A stretch of 64,000 nucleotides of DNA. Origin: Escherichia coli. Lineage in GTDB: Bacteria > Pseudomonadota > Gammaproteobacteria > Enterobacterales > Enterobacteriaceae. The notes beneath the pieces are model-generated. The model was given only the letters and a program-made list of their open reading frames with translations. It made no database searches and was not told the DNA's origin. Positions 10,676-44,215 of the stretch are shown here, one piece after another. The position numbers and the translations under genes were made by a program. The stretch lies in NCBI RefSeq assembly GCF_016026235.1, contig NZ_CP065613.1; one strand, written 5' to 3'. Numbering within the stretch: position 1 is the stretch's first letter; every line of letters starts with the position of its first letter.

Positions 10676-16386
<5,711 letters not shown>

Positions 16387-21217: not shown

Positions 21218-22060
<843 letters not shown>

Positions 22061-24165: not shown

Positions 24166-24771
24166 TCATTGTAAATAATTGAATAACGGCCCCTGAGCTA
24201 AAATCGCCAAACTTAAGCACGTTACCCAATCGCCCCACTTCTTCCTCTGGTTTCTATTTTTTCTGCACCAATGGCAATAATATCCCAATGCAAAACCAAG
24301 CTGTGCACTAATCGGGCCGACAAAATCAGTCCAAGGCTGCGGCCAAAAAGGGGAAAAATTCAGGGGAGGCCAGACAAACGTCAGAAAGAAATTTCGGATA
24401 TTTTCCAGCAACGCTGATTTCTCTGGAGAAATATAAAGAATGAAATTCGAGAGAATTAACCAGAAATAGACCGGCGAAAAGACCAGCCAGCAATGCAGTC
24501 TGTTTTTTAATTCAGGAGGCGTTCTGCGGGAGAATTGCCAACCGATGCCAGCCATTACACTGAAAAAAAGTGCATATTCAACCATTAACTCAAGTTGTAA
24601 TTCCTGAAGAGAAATACGCACAACCAGGAGCGGAAAGGAGAATATTATTTCTGCCAGAAAAGTTAACGTGAATATAAGTACGGCTAAGACAATAACCGTC
24701 GGCCATACCAATAATGGCACGATAACAAAACCGAGAATTACAGGGGGAATATAAAGCCGGAATTTAATCAT
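24166..24771 (-). CDS. Small polytopic membrane protein (about 5 TM helices), unknown function; 4th gene of the accessory operon
   Basis: 201-aa ORF, strongly hydrophobic segments; start 2 nt after the upstream gene's stop. Confidence 0.6.
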   Translation of the reverse strand: MIKFRLYIPPVILGFVIVPLLVWPTVIVLAVLIFTLTFLAEIIFSFPLLVVRISLQELQLELMVEYALFFSVMAGIGWQFSRRTPPELKNRLHCWLVFSPVYFWLILSNFILYISPEKSALLENIRNFFLTFVWPPLNFSPFWPQPWTDFVGPISAQLGFALGYYCHWCRKNRNQRKKWGDWVTCLSLAILAQGPLFNYLQ

Positions 24772-24773
24772 TT

Positions 24774-25541
24774 TTATTTTCCTGGTGATTCGGATGATGC
24801 GTCATACATCGCGCATAAACACTCATCAATTATCCAGTCATCTTCCCAGACCTGATATTCTGTCATTGGTTCGGGCTGTTTTAGCGGGTTCTCAATCGCT
24901 TGCCGCGCTCTTTCTTTCAGTAAAGGATGATTATTTCTAGCCCAGGCATTGATTTGGGTGGTAATGACGTTATCGATATCGTCCTGGTTATCTCTGATAT
25001 AATCCTCACAATATCTGTTCAATAAACAGGCAAGAGAAACGGTCGACCAAAAGCCGGGAACTGAATTAATGGCATCCAGCAATGGCGCAAGAGCGATATC
25101 GGCACGGAAAAACATTTCCAGCATATACTGTAATTCGACAGCTTCATCGCCGGATACCCAATCAGTCATATACTGGCAGGCAAATCGCTGTAAAATTGCC
25201 CGTTCATCCGCACGCCAGTTTTCTTTGTTGGCAAGGTTGATACGGCGCAGAGAAAAAACTACGTGAATATTGTCAAAATGCCCCTGTGCAACAAATTCCA
25301 GTAAACGCGGCAGAAAATAGCGGACCTCATCGCTATTTTGCGGATCAGGCCCTGGGCTACTATTCCAGGCATTGATTAAGGAATACGGGATCGCTCGTAA
25401 CGATGTACTCCGTAATGCCTTTTGTTCCTGCTGACTCAGGCAATATTCACAACAAACCACAAATTTCTGCGGCACCCGATAACGACGAAAGGTGTGATAA
25501 ATCTGCTCAATTAATGCCTGCATGGCGGGGCTGGGTTGCAT
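24774..25541 (-). CDS. Hypothetical soluble Cys-containing protein, unknown function; 3rd gene of the accessory operon
   Basis: 255-aa ORF; no family recognised by eye; CCEYC near the N-terminus and CLC near the C-terminus. Confidence 0.55.
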   Translation of the reverse strand: MQPSPAMQALIEQIYHTFRRYRVPQKFVVCCEYCLSQQEQKALRSTSLRAIPYSLINAWNSSPGPDPQNSDEVRYFLPRLLEFVAQGHFDNIHVVFSLRRINLANKENWRADERAILQRFACQYMTDWVSGDEAVELQYMLEMFFRADIALAPLLDAINSVPGFWSTVSLACLLNRYCEDYIRDNQDDIDNVITTQINAWARNNHPLLKERARQAIENPLKQPEPMTEYQVWEDDWIIDECLCAMYDASSESPGK

Positions 25542-25543
25542 AG

Positions 25544-26254
25544 TTACCCCCTCGCCCGCTGATCGCGTGTAAACGGTTGATAGACAAAACGAGCATTCGC
25601 CGCGTTCAGGCGAATAAGGGCGCTACGCGAAAGGGAAAAGCTGGGGCGAATGCAACTATTGCAGTCTCGACAGCTTTCCTCTGCGCAATTTTCCACTGAG
25701 TAATGACGCGTGTAGAGTTTCAGTTCGGCCTGCTTATCGCGAAATCCGCGTAAACTGTTATTGTTATGAAATTTCCAGGCATCTTTAAAGACCTGAAAGA
25801 TATAGACATCCTCAATCCAGGAGTCACATTTTTTAAGCGGGCGCTTTGCTATTATCACCCGCTCATCCGGATTTAGCATCGCCGTAAATTGTACGGTGAC
25901 GTCATTTGTCGTGTTCAGGTCACATTGAACATCTGGTACATCACTGATATAGGGGTCAAATCCAAAATCAGCACCACAGGCACAAAGACGGCTAATGGTG
26001 GCGGTATCGAGGGAAAATCCCGGCCATACCTTGCTGGAGGTTAAGCCAATATTTAATGTGACATCATATCGAAGCAATCCCTCAAGACCGTCAGCACCGA
26101 CGAACTTTTCCCCTTCATCCAGGGCCTGGTTAATAAGTTGCTGAACAATGCCTTCATCCCAGTATGCCGATTTGCAGTTGGCAATCGTAATATCCACGCC
26201 TGTGAAGGGATCAGTACCGGCAAGGCTTGCAAATAATGTATTAACTAATTCCAT
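25544..26254 (-). CDS. Hypothetical soluble protein with C-terminal Cys cluster CxxxxCxxCxxC; 2nd gene of the accessory operon
   Basis: 236-aa ORF; CAEESCRDCNSC motif; no family recognised by eye. Confidence 0.55.
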   Translation of the reverse strand: MELVNTLFASLAGTDPFTGVDITIANCKSAYWDEGIVQQLINQALDEGEKFVGADGLEGLLRYDVTLNIGLTSSKVWPGFSLDTATISRLCACGADFGFDPYISDVPDVQCDLNTTNDVTVQFTAMLNPDERVIIAKRPLKKCDSWIEDVYIFQVFKDAWKFHNNNSLRGFRDKQAELKLYTRHYSVENCAEESCRDCNSCIRPSFSLSRSALIRLNAANARFVYQPFTRDQRARG

Positions 26255-26269
26255 TTTTATTATCCAGCT

Positions 26270-27787
26270 TTAAGGTAGCGTCTTATACATCGGGACATAA
26301 CCTACATCTTCCACCAAACTCTGTCCCTGCGGCGTTAAAAACCACTCCAACAATTTTTGTGTCTCTGACGTCGTATTTTCCCGCGTTACCATAAAGGCAT
26401 CGACGATATAGGGATATTTGCCGTTGCGAATGTTTTCGGCAGTCGGTGCAATACCGTTAATCGCTAGCAGTTTTATATTTTTATCGGCGTTCATTTGTGT
26501 TGCGTAATAACGGAAGGTGTAACCTATTGCGTTGTTTGTATTACGGTATTCGGCAACGACTTTAATCATTCCCTCCATCATACTTGCCACTTCTGTTTCC
26601 TGCGGCGAGATCATGCGGACATTTTTCATGACCTGGGATTGCATCACCGTCTGGCTGCCAGAGTCTTCCGGGCGCTGCCAGGTCTGGATCTCCTGATCGT
26701 TACCGCCAACAGTACGCCAGTTGGTAATTGCACCACTGAAAATGTCACGCACCTGTTGTTCAGTCAGGGAATTAACCGGATTATCCGCATTGACGATGAA
26801 AACGAATGCTTCACGGGCAAAGGGGGTGTACAGCAAAGTGACACCAGATTCCTTTGCACGTTTTTTTTGCCCACCGGAAGGTTGCGCCACAAAAATAATA
26901 TCAGCATCGCCCTTAACGATTTTGTTATATGCTTCTGGCGTACGAGAGTTTTCCAGATAATCCCAAACGTGAAAATCCTCTGGTATTACACTTAATGCAT
27001 AAAATGCAGAAGCATAAATTGGGTACGCAGCCGTGGCGCCATCGATTCGCGGCCAGTTTTGCCTAAACTGAATTTGCGGTTTGCCACGCAGTGGCGTCAG
27101 TCGATTATTGAGTTTATCGGGTCGCCAGGCCCAGATATCAATATTTTCGCGTACACCGACACCAGGATTTTGCTGCTTATATAAATGGGCCTGATACCCA
27201 GCGACAATACCAAGTAAGAGAAGTAGAAACAGGAGTAAGTTACGGCAACGTAGTCCGGACGTGCCGGATAAAGGATATCTGGTCGGCCAGGCGTATCCCA
27301 GCGAAAAACTGATATGCGCCCCAACGGGAATAATGACCATCCACCAGTACTCACCACCCACTAATGAGACTAAAAAAACGCCCAACCAGGGAAGCATAAG
27401 GTTTGCCAACCAACCAGCTCCCATCTGGCGAAATTGATAATCTGCCAGATGTAGCGTGATTATCCAGCCAACCAGGGTTAATAGCGCGGGTAAGAGAAAA
27501 AAGCATTGCCGCCAGACGGCTATTTCTCTGTTTTCTGGCGCGCTATCACCGGCCCACACGCGACCAGAGAAAAATATTATTACCGCCCCCAGCGTCAGCA
27601 TAAAGACGTTGAGTAGAAGATAAATTGTTGGCGTGATAAGGATATTACAAACTTCAATAATACCGGTAAGCCCGACACCCAGCATGGCAACAACCGCTGC
27701 CAAAAATTGCGCCAGTATGGGGATGCCGAAAAAAGTCATTATCAGCGAGGTCAAAATCCATTTTCTATTTGGCATCATTCTGTCCAT
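26270..27787 (-). CDS. Membrane-anchored PstS-like (phosphate-binding-protein fold) protein; 1st gene of the accessory operon
   Basis: 505-aa ORF; N-terminal about 200 aa with 5-6 hydrophobic helices, C-terminal about 280 aa with PstS-like segments (GATAAYPIY, AIGYTFRYYA, TNWRTVGG); AGGAAG Shine-Dalgarno upstream. Confidence 0.65.
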   Translation of the reverse strand: MDRMMPNRKWILTSLIMTFFGIPILAQFLAAVVAMLGVGLTGIIEVCNILITPTIYLLLNVFMLTLGAVIIFFSGRVWAGDSAPENREIAVWRQCFFLLPALLTLVGWIITLHLADYQFRQMGAGWLANLMLPWLGVFLVSLVGGEYWWMVIIPVGAHISFSLGYAWPTRYPLSGTSGLRCRNLLLFLLLLLGIVAGYQAHLYKQQNPGVGVRENIDIWAWRPDKLNNRLTPLRGKPQIQFRQNWPRIDGATAAYPIYASAFYALSVIPEDFHVWDYLENSRTPEAYNKIVKGDADIIFVAQPSGGQKKRAKESGVTLLYTPFAREAFVFIVNADNPVNSLTEQQVRDIFSGAITNWRTVGGNDQEIQTWQRPEDSGSQTVMQSQVMKNVRMISPQETEVASMMEGMIKVVAEYRNTNNAIGYTFRYYATQMNADKNIKLLAINGIAPTAENIRNGKYPYIVDAFMVTRENTTSETQKLLEWFLTPQGQSLVEDVGYVPMYKTLP

Positions 27788-27870
27788 TCTTCCTGAATGA
27801 CGGAATTATACTCCCCGAGAACCCTCGCCCCCTCTGGACACTTTTCCGAAATGATGGCGAAAAAAAACGG

Positions 27871-27882
27871 GACCCTTTGGCC
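27871..27882. repeat. IS4 target-site duplication, copy 1 (GACCCTTTGGCC)
   Basis: Identical 12-mer directly abuts both IS4 termini. Confidence 0.85.
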
Positions 27883-29308
27883 TAATGCCAGTCAGTTAAG
27901 CAACTGACTGGCTCTTTTTCGGGGCTGTGGGGTATTTCCAGGGCCTCTCCTTTACCACTCTCGGGAAGGCCCTTCCCCTTCTCGTCGGTAATTTCACAAG
28001 TTGTCCCATACTTGCAAGATCGCGCATCAGCTCCGGTATACGTCCCGGTGAAGCGCCCTGCAATGTCATCAGCATTCTCATCACCATTCCGCATGATTCT
28101 GAGAAACTCAGTTGATTCGGCCAGTAACCTTTCAGATGTTCCGCCATTTTAATCATCTGATATCTCACCAGATTATAAGCCAGTAAGACACCCCACAGCT
28201 CTTGCTCCACAAGCTCCGGCTTTTTACTTCTCAGCGTCAGCCTGCTCAGTTGCATCGTCTGTTTTATCTCCCTGTATCCCAGTTCGATTTCCCAGCGATG
28301 ACTGTACAGATCCGCCATTTCTCCTCCGGGGAAGCGCATGGCGTCCGTCATCGACGTCAGCAGATGGCAGACTTTTCCTTTGCGCGTCACGGTCAGCAGG
28401 CGGGCTGTCACTTCATTTCCCAGTCCCGGCCACTTTTTTCGTGCCTGCGGGCTGGTTTTCAGCTTCACCAGATGATCGCCTTTACCCAGTTTTCTGAGCT
28501 CTTCATATTGCGCTCCCTTTCTGAGAGGTATCATCCAGTGGCGGTGTTCTCCCGCCAGGCTCCAGGCATTTAACAGTCCCAGTGAGTAATAACCTTTATC
28601 CATTAACGTCAGAGTGTTATCGCCGGTTTGTTCTATAAGTTGCTCAGCAAGCTCATTTTCGCTGTTCTTCATCGTGCCGAAGGCTGCAGCCGTCAGCAGA
28701 TGGCTGGTCAGTTCCATCTGGCAGACCATTTTGACCTGCGGGTAGAGCGCCGGGTTCCCGGCATGTGTCTGGCGGGGGAAGGCTGCATCGTTCTCTGGTG
28801 TATCCGGTGTGCGCCAGAACACACCATCGATGGCCAGCAGGGTCAGGCCGCACCAGTGCGGATGCGGCGTGGCGTTATGCCAGAGCTGCGCTGTTTTCGT
28901 GAACACGCGGCGGACAGCCTCACTTCCCAGGCGCTGGCGGGCCTGAATAACGGCACTGGGGGCAACGAAGGGGCGATTGCCCGGCAGCATGATGTCCAGG
29001 CGATTCACAATCTGGTGAAGAGGTTCTTTACGCTCAAGCGCCATGCCAACAATACACCAGACCATCATTTCGAGGGGAAGACGGCGCTTGCGTAGCGTTA
29101 CAGTACCTGATTCGGCAAGGCAACGAGAGATGAGTTCGGGGTCGAGGTAATCCCCCAGAGAAGTCAGTGGGTTACGCAGAGAATCGTAACGGGATACCAG
29201 ATCAAGAGCCTGTCCAATGTGCATAAAAAAATCCGGAAACAAGTGAGCGTTTCCGGATTCTTACACAGCCACTGGATCGGTCAACTGATCCTTAACTGAT
29301 CGGCATTA
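27883..29308 (-). mobile_element. IS4 insertion sequence (1426 bp) with imperfect terminal inverted repeats
   Basis: Termini TAATGCCAGTCAGTTAAG (27883) and the reverse complement of TAATGCCGATCAGTTAAGG (29308); single IS4-family DDE transposase ORF inside; flanked by a 12-bp direct repeat. Confidence 0.9.
27896..29224 (-). CDS. insG: IS4 transposase (DDE)
   Basis: ORF 27896..29242; 442 aa from [14 protein letters not shown], matching the IS4 transposase as I recall it. Confidence 0.85.
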
Positions 29309-29320
29309 GACCCTTTGGCC
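29309..29320. repeat. IS4 target-site duplication, copy 2 (GACCCTTTGGCC)
   Basis: Identical to 27871..27882. Confidence 0.85.
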
Positions 29321-29341
29321 CCGTTCTATTTATTGGTGAAA

Positions 29342-31807
<2,466 letters not shown>

Positions 31808-40916: not shown

Positions 40917-42119
40917 TTACCTGAACTGATAATGACCTTCGCCCAATCGGATAACCCTTCCCTCTTCTTCTGCGCGGTTCAGCCACACACTAATTTGTTC
41001 GATGGTTAAACCAGTACAAGACGCCAGCCTTTCAATACTTATCGATTCCTTTGCAAGGATCGCCAGTTCCGCCACAAAGAGTTGATAAAAATCGACAGGC
41101 GTATACGCGGGCATTACTGCGTAATTTGCGTCATCTTCATGCAGCGAAAACAGTTCTGGTTGAGCGTTACGGAGTGCTCTGTCATACATCAGCCCAGGAA
41201 CGTCTGGCAGTCTGATCGTCACATTCTCAGCCTGTTCAGCACTCCATGACGCCCCATTTTCTACTAATCGTGAATTGGCTGATTGCATATCCTGATTTGG
41301 TTTAACCTGCACAGGCAGCCACTGATGTTTTAATGCCTCCATCGCCCCGGTTATCGTTCCACCGGTCATTCCCGCACGTACAACCATTGCGCTTTCAGCA
41401 AGGCAATAAATATATTTATTTCGCGCCATCGCATTGCCGACGGTGAAACGTACCTCTGGGTAAAACGGCGAAATCAACACCAGGTTGCCTGCTATAAGCC
41501 CTTCACGCCATTTCACTAACGTACTCGTTTTTAACAAGCTATCAGCTAATACGCCAACGGCTGTTCCCCCGGTCTCCAGTGCCGACGCCATTGCACATTC
41601 ATCAATACCTCGCGCACCACCAGAGATAACGCAAATCCCCTGTTGGGCCAGTTTCGCGGCCAGTTGTTGGGTATAGCGCAAATCGTCAGTCGGAGCATCT
41701 CGCGAGCCAACAATCGCCATACCTTCCGCTTGCAGTAATGCTTTATTCCCGCAGCCAAATAAAACGGGAGGTGCATCCGTTCGCAATCGGTTTTTCAAGC
41801 GAACGGGATAATCAGCATCTCCGCGGGTTAAGATCCATAAACCGGCGCGTTGCCACTTATCTACCGCCAACGCCAGACTATGACCACGCGCCAGCAAGCC
41901 AAGAATACGCTCCTGAGAAATACGCGGATCGCTCCAGCCTGTAAGTTTCTCTTGCGGTTGCGGCACCAGAAGCTCGGCGGGACTGATACGTTGGTGCTTC
42001 AGCCATAATGCAAACTTCCCCCATTCACTATTACTAAGAGGTTTATACTCACTCGCCGCCGCGCGAGAAAAATCGCTGGTTAGCAGGAGAGTTGCTTGTG
42101 CATTGGCTGAAAGATTCAT
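40917..42119 (-). CDS. DprA/Smf-like (SLOG-fold) protein with C-terminal winged-helix-like tail; 2nd gene of the helicase island
   Basis: ORF 40917..42212; start placed at MNLSANAQ (42119), whose ATG overlaps the upstream stop (TGATG); DprA-type motifs GSRDAPTDDLRY and ISGGARGIDE. Confidence 0.7.
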   Translation of the reverse strand: MNLSANAQATLLLTSDFSRAAASEYKPLSNSEWGKFALWLKHQRISPAELLVPQPQEKLTGWSDPRISQERILGLLARGHSLALAVDKWQRAGLWILTRGDADYPVRLKNRLRTDAPPVLFGCGNKALLQAEGMAIVGSRDAPTDDLRYTQQLAAKLAQQGICVISGGARGIDECAMASALETGGTAVGVLADSLLKTSTLVKWREGLIAGNLVLISPFYPEVRFTVGNAMARNKYIYCLAESAMVVRAGMTGGTITGAMEALKHQWLPVQVKPNQDMQSANSRLVENGASWSAEQAENVTIRLPDVPGLMYDRALRNAQPELFSLHEDDANYAVMPAYTPVDFYQLFVAELAILAKESISIERLASCTGLTIEQISVWLNRAEEEGRVIRLGEGHYQFR

Positions 42120-44215
42120 CAATTTTTTACCGAGGTAGAAGCAAGGGCAAGAGGATAAACCGTCGGGCAACCTGCCTGGCGTAACAGTGCTGTCAGAACT
42201 GTCAGCGTCCATGCAGAATCCACGATATCGTCAACCAGCAACGCCGGACCAGGCATCAAAGGAGGGGTAATCACAAACGCCCCATCGAGATTTTGACACT
42301 GGTGGAAACGGTTTTGCTGCATTTTCTGCGGTGGATTGTCCACGACTTTTTCAATGGCATCAATAAAAGGTAAGCCAAGTTTCGCCGCCAGTCGCCGGGC
42401 AAAATCAGGAACCAGGTCGAGGTGCTTTAATGAAGGAACGCAGCATACCCAGGTTGGTTCAGGATGCGGATTCCAGCGTTGGCGAACCATTTCCGCACAT
42501 GCCTCCACCAGTTCATCACTGAATCGCCCCGTTTTTTTCTCCTGTGCTACCTGCTTTCCCCACCCGGAATCTCCCCAACGAGAAAGGATTCGCCCCGTAG
42601 ATCCTTGTAAACTCGCAGGCAAGTTCCCTTTAAATCCGTATTGCGTAAAAGCCCCAGCTGCCACCTGTTTATTGAGATTTAATGGCAGGTCAGCGTGTTT
42701 AATAAATAAGTTTGCCGCATGGAGTAAGCCGCTATCAATGTCGGGCGACAACAACGGATACTGAAGACAACTGCTACATTTACCACAATGTTCGGCACCT
42801 GGCTCATCGAGTGCGCGGCGCAGAAATTGCATTTTGCACTCCTTGGTCGTGATATAGCTTTCAACGTCTGCCAGCTCACTTTTTCTCTGATTCATCAAAT
42901 GGTTAATTCGTTCATGGTCAGGAGAAAAACTGACAATTGTTCTGCGCCATAATTTCTCGGTATACACCACAGGCGATGGATTTTCAGCTACCAATAATTT
43001 CAGTGCTTTTTCTATTTGCCCGTAACGGAGATTCGTCCGTTGTTCAATGCCTCGTAAGGTAAGACCGTCATTCACGCTAAGTACGTTGAGTATTTCATGA
43101 ATTTGCGCCTCCGCAGGAAAGGCGCTTTCACGGAAGAATTTATGAATAGCACGGTCTTCACTGCCGCAAAGCAGTATGCCAACAGCAGAATCGATACCGC
43201 GACCGGCACGCCCCACCTGTTGGTAGTAACCAACTATCGAACCTGGCATCTGGTAATGAATAACAAACCCCAAATCCGGTTTGTCAAAGCCCATTCCCAG
43301 CGCAGTTGTCGCAACCAGCACTTTAATTTTATTTGCCAGCAACGCCTGCTCCAGATATTCCCTGGCAGTATTAGAATCTTCCGCGCCTTCACAAGTCACG
43401 CCGCTGTAGTAAGCAAATGCACTGATACCATTTTTCCTTAACCACTCGGCGACAAGTTCGGCATCGCGAGTAGTCAGGGTATAAACAATTCCCGATTTGG
43501 AAAACTGAGGGATAACCGTTGCTAACCATGCCAGACGGGATGACTGTTCACCTAAGACTAAGGCATCAAGCGCCAAACTTTCGCGAGCCAGCGTTCCACG
43601 CTGAATCACAATGTCACCCAATTGCTGACGGATATCCTCAACGACACGGTTATTCGCTGTCGCGGTTGTACCCAGAACAGGGGTATTCGCAGGTAGTTGG
43701 CGCAAAATATCTAATATACGTCGGTAATCCGGGCGAAAATCGTGGCCCCAATCAGAGATGCAGTGCGCCTCGTCGACCACAAGCAAGCCAATACGATCGG
43801 CTATAGGATATAAAACCGTTTCGATAAAGTCCTGGTTTGCCAAACGTTCCGGGGAAACCAGCAAGCAATCGACCTCACCTTGCAGCAACTTATCGCTAAT
43901 GCGCTGCCATTCTTCTCTGTTTGTAGAATTCAACGTTTCAGCCGTAATACCTAACCGTTCAGCGGCGGCAACCTGGTTACGCATCAGGGCAAGCAAAGGA
44001 GAGATGATAATTGTCAGGCCAGCGCCGCGATCGCGGAAGATTTTACTGGCGATGAAGTACACAGCACTTTTCCCCCAGCCAGTGCGTTGGACAACCAGCA
44101 GTTTTCGCCGTTGGTTCACCACCGCGTCTATGGCTTCCCATTGCCCTTCCCTGAAAGTAGCGGTGGTATTTCCTAACATCCGCTGTAAAAGCAATTCAGC
44201 TGCGTGCTTTTCCAT
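42119..44215 (-). CDS. RecQ-family SF2 helicase fused to a C-terminal ComF-type phosphoribosyltransferase-like domain; 1st gene of the helicase island
   Basis: 698 aa; Walker A TGWGKS, DEAH box VVDEAHCISDWGHDFRPDY, motif VI QQVGRAGRG, Cys cluster CGKCSSC, C-terminal PRTase-like LLVDDIVDSAWTL; AGGAG Shine-Dalgarno 5 nt upstream of the ATG. Confidence 0.7.
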   Translation of the reverse strand: MEKHAAELLLQRMLGNTTATFREGQWEAIDAVVNQRRKLLVVQRTGWGKSAVYFIASKIFRDRGAGLTIIISPLLALMRNQVAAAERLGITAETLNSTNREEWQRISDKLLQGEVDCLLVSPERLANQDFIETVLYPIADRIGLLVVDEAHCISDWGHDFRPDYRRILDILRQLPANTPVLGTTATANNRVVEDIRQQLGDIVIQRGTLARESLALDALVLGEQSSRLAWLATVIPQFSKSGIVYTLTTRDAELVAEWLRKNGISAFAYYSGVTCEGAEDSNTAREYLEQALLANKIKVLVATTALGMGFDKPDLGFVIHYQMPGSIVGYYQQVGRAGRGIDSAVGILLCGSEDRAIHKFFRESAFPAEAQIHEILNVLSVNDGLTLRGIEQRTNLRYGQIEKALKLLVAENPSPVVYTEKLWRRTIVSFSPDHERINHLMNQRKSELADVESYITTKECKMQFLRRALDEPGAEHCGKCSSCLQYPLLSPDIDSGLLHAANLFIKHADLPLNLNKQVAAGAFTQYGFKGNLPASLQGSTGRILSRWGDSGWGKQVAQEKKTGRFSDELVEACAEMVRQRWNPHPEPTWVCCVPSLKHLDLVPDFARRLAAKLGLPFIDAIEKVVDNPPQKMQQNRFHQCQNLDGAFVITPPLMPGPALLVDDIVDSAWTLTVLTALLRQAGCPTVYPLALASTSVKN

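Follow-up and report, generated by a model that had tools for sequence, protein, structure and literature searches.

A recent IS4 insertion in the probable glgP terminator of Escherichia coli, at a recurrently used site and with predicted terminator-like hairpins inside the element

If an insertion sequence lies in the probable terminator of one operon and directly upstream of the next, what happens to transcription across the junctions? This question is raised by a locus of Escherichia coli in which an IS4 element is located between glgP and an operon of four genes (24166..27787), the first of which is PstS-like. The transposase gene, glgP, and the four-gene operon are all on the minus strand and are co-directional. 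The initial annotation of the window, as we call the whole 64-kb stretch of DNA that was analyzed, stated that the element splits the probable terminator of glgP. It also suggested that transcripts of the glg operon may read into the transposase gene, and that expression of the downstream operon may be altered by read-through or by promoter activity of the element. In the present study, we analyzed the element, its target site, and the hairpins and promoters in and around it, and compared the locus with other genomes. The features are summarized in Table 1.

Table 1. Positions of the features at the glgP-IS4-operon junctions (numbering of the window)
Feature	Position	Strand	Basis or remarks
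First gene of the four-gene operon, C-terminal half PstS-family-like	26270..27787	minus	ORF, NCBIfam
TATAAT hexamer	27805..27810	minus	17 nt upstream of the ATG at 27787; untouched by the insertion
3' remnant of the probable glgP terminator: duplication copy (inner stem, loop), then CCG and U8	27860..27882	minus	Sequence, folding
Left copy of the 12-bp target-site duplication GACCCTTTGGCC	27871..27882		Direct-repeat search
Complete IS4 element, 1426 bp	27883..29308	minus	Boundaries read from the sequence
Left terminal inverted repeat (IRL) TAATGCCAGTCAGTTAAG	27883..27900	plus	Terminal-repeat motif search
Predicted inward-facing hairpin (11 bp) and TCTTTTT, left end of IS4	27887..27919	plus	Terminator scan, folding
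IS4 transposase (InsG-type), 442 aa, intact	27896..29224	minus	ORF translation and NCBIfam profile
Predicted IS4 5' hairpin AAUCCGGAAAC/GUUUCCGGAUU, 8-nt loop, and U7	29225..29259	minus	Inverted-repeat search, folding
Candidate transposase promoter TTGACC-16-AAGAAT, TG upstream	29257..29284 (29284->29257)	minus	Promoter consensus scan only
Right terminal inverted repeat (IRR) TAATGCCGATCAGTTAAG	29291..29308	minus	Terminal-repeat motif search
Right copy of the 12-bp target-site duplication GACCCTTTGGCC	29309..29320		Direct-repeat search
5' remnant of the probable glgP terminator: GAACGG, then duplication copy (inner stem, loop)	29309..29326	minus	Sequence, folding
glgP, encoding glycogen phosphorylase (815 aa); final gene of the glg cluster	29342..31789	minus	ORF; homologous loci annotated

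The description of a 1426-bp element with IS4-type inverted repeats and a perfect 12-bp direct repeat was confirmed to the base, with respect to the boundaries, the ends, and the repeat. The element is identical to the IS4 of K-12 MG1655 at 1420 of 1426 positions (6 mismatches) and shows 100% identity to copies on large plasmids of Shigella flexneri/EIEC and E. coli. Because of these values, we regard it as IS4 itself rather than a relative. Its two terminal inverted repeats (18 bp each) match at 16 of 18 positions. A search of the 64-kb window with the terminal-repeat motif gave two matches only, both of which were the ends of IS4, with a chance expectation of 0.03.

The transposase ORF is uninterrupted from the ATG at 29224 to the stop codon at 27896-27898 on the minus strand. 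The 442-aa product carries the YREK motif, Y-x2-R-x3-E-x6-K (the Y(2)R(3)E(6)K signature), and scored 303.8 bits against the NCBIfam profile NF033592, 'IS4 family transposase' (cutoff, 115). In the subgroup IS4 of the IS4 family, the end signature is -AATR--------WTW---- (PMC2266710, Table 1), and the ranges are 1400-1650 bp for the size of the element and 10-13 bp for the target duplication (PMC2266710). The left repeat TAATGCCAGTCAGTTAAG fits the signature, with AATG at positions 2-5 and TTA at positions 14-16, and the window copy, with its 1426 bp and perfect 12-bp duplication, is within both ranges. The K-12 copy (insG, b4278), the founding member of the IS4 family, shares the 18-bp inverted repeats, the 442-aa transposase, and a 12-bp duplication with the copy studied here.

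When IS4 and one copy of the repeat are removed, the original target site is rebuilt. With its context, this site reads TAA-N15-GAACGGGGCC-AAAG-GGTCCCGTTT-TTTTT on the minus strand. The hairpin itself, GAACGGGGCC-AAAG-GGUCCCGUUU, has a folding energy of -16.0 kcal/mol and precedes a U-run; the stem has 10 bp, and the first three of the eight T residues in the DNA are paired within the stem. The 71-nt context of the rebuilt hairpin gave a z value of -4.3 versus shuffled sequences. With a GC-rich stem-loop and a U-run after the stop codon, the rebuilt site is a probable intrinsic (Rho-independent) terminator of glgP. The hairpin had been placed 20-30 nt after the glgP stop codon, which is right for its centre (about 27 nt 3' of the stop codon) but not for the stem, which begins at 15 nt. 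Natural alleles of the segment that is duplicated (GACCCTTTGGCC, GACCTTTTGGCC, and GACCTTGTGGCC) vary at loop positions only, as expected of a functional stem.

The duplicated segment comprises the inner 4 bp of both arms and the loop; thus, IS4 entered at the tip of the hairpin. The remnant on the glgP side folds with -7.5 kcal/mol and is without a U-run, and the remnant on the operon side has a 4-bp stem (-5.0 kcal/mol) that is not adjacent to the U8. The probable terminator is split, as had been proposed, and, as judged by folding, neither junction retains a usable hairpin beside a U-run. Our literature search found nothing on the glgP terminator, and an Rfam scan of positions 27000-30000 (E <= 1) gave no RNA family.

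The reconstructed empty site corresponds to a real allele. Deletion of IS4 and one repeat gave a 600-nt sequence that is 100.0% identical to that of E. coli FDAARGOS_943. The 12-bp sequence, which abuts the inverted repeats exactly in the window, is single-copy in the empty-site allele. FDAARGOS_943 and the window were aligned in three blocks (about 39 kb in total, 99.89-99.95% identical) and differ in arrangement at two points only, namely the IS4 of the window and an IS2 in the PstS-like gene of FDAARGOS_943. Together with the intact ORF and ends of the element, the empty site of this relative is indirect evidence that the element can transpose. Among 5426 complete E. coli genomes, the site was contiguous and unoccupied in 4589; thus, the arrangement is not shared by all relatives. 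The flank haplotype of the window was not found together with this insertion in any complete E. coli genome, and occupied sites in the orientation of the window matched the query of IS4 plus flanks at only 96.8-97.8%. Since the relative with the empty site is about 99.9% identical and no complete genome with the haplotype of the window is occupied, the insertion is, judging from these alignments, recent and lineage-specific. Copies identical to the IS4 of the window were found on a plasmid presumably derived from the same strain (adjacent accession number). The lineage is rich in insertion sequences and, as the plasmid matches suggest, probably enteroinvasive (EIEC or Shigella-like).

It has been known since about 1980 that IS4 selects palindrome-flanked targets. 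Mayaux and co-workers reportedly found IS4 in the attenuator of pheS,T in 1984, and the consensus of its targets is said to be AAA-N20-TTT. We observed similar sites in strain IAI39, in which IS4 is present in the bamD terminator (AAAACGG-CAGCCTTGAGCTG-CCGTTTT, with a 13-bp duplication) and in the adhE terminator (AAACGG-TCCCTTCTGGGG-CCGTTTT, with a 12-bp duplication); the 3' flank is CCGTTTTTTT in both cases. When species-representative genomes were searched with the left end of IS4, 67 loci were obtained in Enterobacterales species; the full-length IS4-like elements at these loci share 75-82% identity with IS4.

Flank statistics were obtained from 59 unique IS4-like flanks of the Enterobacterales species representatives. 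The residue A is found at positions -20 to -17 in 71-86% of these flanks, and the A-run is followed by a C-rich arm, an AT-rich loop, and G at positions -4 and -1. The sequence AAAA is present in 78% of the flanks versus 8% of the control positions. In 68% of the flanks, versus 16% of the controls, the two ends of the presumed duplication can form at least three of four possible Watson-Crick pairs. These results indicate that IS4-like elements generally integrate at the tips of GC hairpins between an A-run and a T-run and duplicate 11-13 bp. In contrast to the window copy in the glgP terminator, the resident IS4 of K-12, between yjgZ and nanX, is at a site that fits AAA-N20-TTT but has no strong hairpin. 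As the K-12 site lacks the hairpin, the target rule, as deduced from these flanks, is a spacing of A-tract and T-tract combined with a preference for palindromes, with no absolute requirement for a terminator.

The glgP site is like known IS4 targets in that an A-run and a T-run bracket the duplication, in its terminator-type hairpin, and in the 11-13 bp length of the duplication. It differs in that the consensus fits as AAA-N18-TT or AAA-N20-TTC and not exactly. The choice of this site is known behavior of IS4. The target preference of IS4 has also been treated by De Palmenaer et al. in 2008 (PMC2266710). Other elements use palindromic sequences as well; IS1397 and ISKpn1 target REP/BIME sequences, and ISRm22 of the IS4 family targets REPs (PMC1525189). 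IS4 resembles these elements in having a palindromic extragenic target, which keeps insertions out of genes. Unlike them, it uses individual terminators with A/T tracts and a variable stem, and not a repeated REP family.

The same 11-12 bp were occupied by IS4 in 38 of the 5426 complete E. coli genomes, 19 in the orientation of the window and 19 in the opposite orientation. In the background with the PstS-like operon, the duplication is GACCCTTTGGCC (12 bp) in the window, GACCTTTTGGCC (12 bp) in CMZE120, with the same orientation as the window, and GACCTTGTGGCC (12 bp) and GACCCTTTGGC (11 bp) in NCTC10444 and S21, respectively, both with the opposite orientation. In the background with the yzgL remnant, it is GACCCTTTGGCC (12 bp) in both FDAARGOS_1249 (same orientation as the window) and N25 (opposite orientation). 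Because the sequence or length of the duplication, the orientation, and the gene background differ between lineages, we count at least six independent IS4 events, including that of the window, at the nucleotides of the glgP terminator. The possibility that the 19 genomes with the same orientation represent one clone was rejected, as their duplications and gene backgrounds differ. A strict orientation specificity was also rejected, given the 19 further genomes with the opposite orientation.

In strain S21, the only copy of IS4 is the one at this site, and its transposase gene has an internal stop codon. The insertion has outlived its transposase and has thus been tolerated for a long time. Ten further isolates (from beef, lettuce, pig, chicken, cattle, and sludge) have a single IS4 copy at this site, with identical match statistics. 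In the literature that we searched, we found no mention of this recurrence of IS4 at the glgP locus (38 of 5426 genomes). Both the habitual target type of IS4 and the recurrent use of the site had been overlooked in the initial annotation.

Inside IS4, 49 nt from the right end, the glgP sense strand contains a predicted hairpin that reads AAUCCGGAAAC-GCUCACUU-GUUUCCGGAUU (arms, 29259->29249 and 29240->29230). With -15.5 kcal/mol, this 5' hairpin is as strong as the lost terminator (-16.0 kcal/mol). The first two residues of its U7 (29231->29225) are within the 3' arm, and the run ends at the transposase ATG. The z value of the 76-nt context was -5.1 in folding versus shuffled sequences. The stem was found in seven diverged IS4-like elements (75-82% identical), in which 98.6% of the alignment cells are paired; when one partner of the stem was slid by one column, pairing fell to 55-61%. 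Two pairs show compensatory changes (G-C to A-U and C-G to U-A), and in this sample of 7 sequences with 2 variable pairs, the observed covariation score was reached in 15 of 500 column shuffles. We consider the covariation to be supportive of the stem but not conclusive. The hairpin was not listed in the consensus terminator scan of the minus strand, and it was retained on the basis of folding and covariation. In the full fold, upstream A-rich bases pair with part of its U-run. The predicted structure has the form of a terminator, that is, a stable stem-loop with a U-run.

In read-through RNA, the 5' hairpin would also sequester a GGA triplet that resembles a Shine-Dalgarno sequence. From the position of the candidate transposase promoter, we infer that transcription starts near 29250, where the 5' arm of the hairpin ends. 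As the transposase transcript would start inside this arm, only RNA that enters from outside could form the hairpin. In IS10 and IS50, fold-backs are said to hide the ribosome-binding site of the transposase from external transcription, reportedly according to Davis, Simons and Kleckner in 1985 and Schulz and Reznikoff in 1991. The predicted hairpin of IS4 is like these in that it covers the translation start of the transposase and could be formed in read-through RNA only. It is unlike them in that it also has a U7 tail and resembles a full intrinsic terminator. To our knowledge, no test of such protection has been published for IS4.

The left end of IS4 also has an inward-facing hairpin, which lies on the plus strand. 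It folds with -18.7 kcal/mol and was listed as terminator-like in the scan. A comparison of 27 sequence variants from IS4-like elements showed its T-run in 26, although the encoded C-terminal residues change; part of this conservation may reflect coding, as the T-run overlaps a lysine-rich coding sequence. The hairpin is predicted to be terminator-like for transcripts that enter from the opposite side. On the minus strand, neither the scan nor folding predicted a terminator at the left end.

Downstream of IS4, the PstS-like protein scored 123.5 bits against TIGR02136, below the cutoff of 206.6, and PGAP names a homologue of the gene a PstS family protein. The reported distance of 95 bp between IS4 and the start of this gene is correct for the ATG of the longest ORF (27787). 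However, annotations of other genomes make the homologous gene three codons shorter (1509 versus 1518 bp), which fits the ATG at 27778, and the distance to this start is 104 nt. The TATAAT hexamer noted on the minus strand is indeed present but lacks a -35 partner; there is no -35-like hexamer at 16-18 nt from it (27810->27805), and it was not among the promoters called in the scan. No Pho box was seen by eye upstream of the hexamer. Since the insertion is 72 nt upstream of this -10 hexamer, the putative core promoter of the operon is intact. The promoter scan found no sigma-70-like promoter that reads out of the left end of IS4 toward the operon. Low-level read-out of transcripts from the transposase promoter toward the operon is possible.

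We consider it very probable that IS4 has recently transposed, in its ordinary way, into a target of the type that it prefers, that the element brings terminator-like hairpins of its own, and that the effect is nearly neutral. The course of events would be as follows. IS4 inserted at the tip of the hairpin with U8 behind glgP and split the probable terminator. Transcripts of glgCAP would now enter the element through its right inverted repeat and end at the hairpin with U7 that precedes the transposase ATG, so that their 3' ends would be shifted by about 100 nt from those at the old terminator. In RNA that continues past this point, the ribosome-binding site of the transposase would be locked in the hairpin, as in IS10 and IS50. 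The PstS-like operon keeps a 95-nt upstream region with its -10 hexamer, and its expression would probably be little changed. The termination step itself, within IS4, is the less secure part, and we regard it as somewhat more probable than its contrary. Termination or occlusion of the ribosome-binding site, taken together, is more likely than productive read-through, and the insertion is likely to be close to neutral.

The loss of the native terminator could also mean that glgCAP transcripts pass through the transposase gene, so that more transposase is made and the PstS-like operon becomes coupled to the glycogen operon. The native hairpin is destroyed, its remnants are weak or apart from a U-run, glgP, the transposase gene, and the operon are co-directional, and no terminator was predicted on the minus strand at the left end of IS4. 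However, transcripts that have crossed the right inverted repeat would meet the conserved hairpin with U7 before they reach the transposase ATG, and this argues against the proposal that glg transcripts read into the transposase gene; it would also bury the GGA triplet in any read-through RNA. The repeated hits in both orientations, as well as the S21 insertion that outlasts its transposase, fit a low impact. We therefore consider this explanation unlikely, and the alteration of the downstream operon by read-through is a weak functional proposal, with the same hairpin standing inside IS4.

Insertion sequences such as IS1, IS2, IS5, and IS10 supply outward or hybrid promoters, and the end of IS4 is only 95 nt from the start of the PstS-like gene, so that the left end might activate this operon. 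Against this, the scan found no outward sigma-70-like site, inspection of the junction revealed no -35-like hexamer in the end of the element with proper spacing from a -10 sequence in the flank, and the operon retains its own untouched TATAAT. The suggestion of an IS-borne promoter acting on the operon is thus not borne out, and we regard it as very improbable. Least credible of all is an ancestral arrangement, a chance repeat, or an assembly artefact, for which we found no point in favor. The empty alleles, including the 100% identical one of the closest relative, refute it, the duplication joins the inverted repeats exactly, the flank haplotype of the window is never occupied among complete E. 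coli genomes, and the same junction geometry occurs in independent assemblies. The preferred reading is thus an ordinary and nearly neutral transposition of IS4.

The element and its class of target are already known. The additions made here are modest, namely the recurrent use of one exact site and the symmetrical, inward-facing terminators, which are predicted. A more general idea, which we offer tentatively and hold to be rather less probable than not, is that IS4-type elements act as 'terminator-swap' cassettes, which seek the tips of terminators made up of an A-run, a hairpin, and a T-run, and which bring with them two intrinsic terminators, one at either end and both facing inward. If this is true, the gene upstream of the insertion would again be followed by a terminator within about 40-100 nt in either orientation, and the transposase gene would be insulated. 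Terminators would then be reusable safe havens for the element, and the idea would explain the hits, at least six in number, in both orientations and an insertion that outlasts its transposase.

The finding has little weight for biology at large. For annotation, the glgP terminator can be noted as a recurrent landing pad of IS4, with 38 occupied sites among 5426 complete E. coli genomes. Being strain-specific and recent, the insertion in the window is useful as a marker of its lineage, and coupling between the glycogen genes and the PstS-like operon should not be assumed. The idea of most worth is that the two inward-facing terminators predicted in IS4 may replace the terminator that the element destroys.

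The gene content between glpD and glgP differs across E. coli, as was seen when the window was compared with L001, L002, L003 (E. coli FDAARGOS_943), L076 (E. coli AR_0006) and L077; the arrangements are listed in the table together with the other features treated here. In FDAARGOS_943, a near-identical relative, the annotation marks glpG (12300-13130) as a pseudogene interrupted by an internal stop, and the window carries a 276-aa open reading frame at the matching place (about 21218..22048). The RecQ-family helicase gene is intact in the window but frameshifted in FDAARGOS_943. K-12 is not known to carry genes at the corresponding position between yhgN and gntU, and so the DprA-like gene and the RecQ-family helicase gene may constitute a small two-gene island.

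Features of the window and of the compared genomes
Genome	Location	Position or length	Strand	Content
Window	yhgN-gntU	40917..44215	minus	Two genes: DprA-like, 431 aa; RecQ-family helicase, 698 aa
Window	glpD-glgP	24166..27787	minus	PstS-like operon, four genes
CMZE120	glpD-glgP			PstS-like operon with three genes; 236-aa gene absent
K-12-type strains	glpD-glgP			yzgL remnant only
SF-468	glpD-glgP			Fimbrial operon; a different hairpin 3' of glgP
FDAARGOS_943	glpD-glgP			PstS-like gene interrupted by IS2
Salmonella enterica subsp. arizonae (L025)		about 594 bp		IS4-like element, internal deletion
Pantoea agglomerans (L071)		about 452 bp		IS4-like element, internal deletion
Erwinia endophytica (L007)		about 565 bp		IS4-like element, internal deletion

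The short IS4-like derivatives found in L025, L071 and L007 have retained their two ends along with the 5' hairpin region and have lost most of the transposase gene; thus, they are MITE-like.

In AR_0006 (NZ_CP024851.1, about 1780-2500), IS200C directly adjoins the A-run of the glgP terminator, and therefore the neighbourhood of the terminator occupied by IS4 in the window is used by a second insertion sequence, unrelated to IS4. The terminator hairpin itself is unbroken in AR_0006. The PstS-like gene of this strain contains an internal stop.

In E. coli S21 (L074), the glgP terminator copy, which lies in the orientation opposite to that in the window, is the single IS4 of the genome, and its transposase gene contains an internal stop. 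Ten more isolates of food, animal and environmental origin (H99-H108) likewise carry their sole IS4 copy in the glgP terminator. In S21 and these isolates, the insertion looks like an old one that has been inherited vertically and is decaying, the internal stop being that of the S21 transposase.
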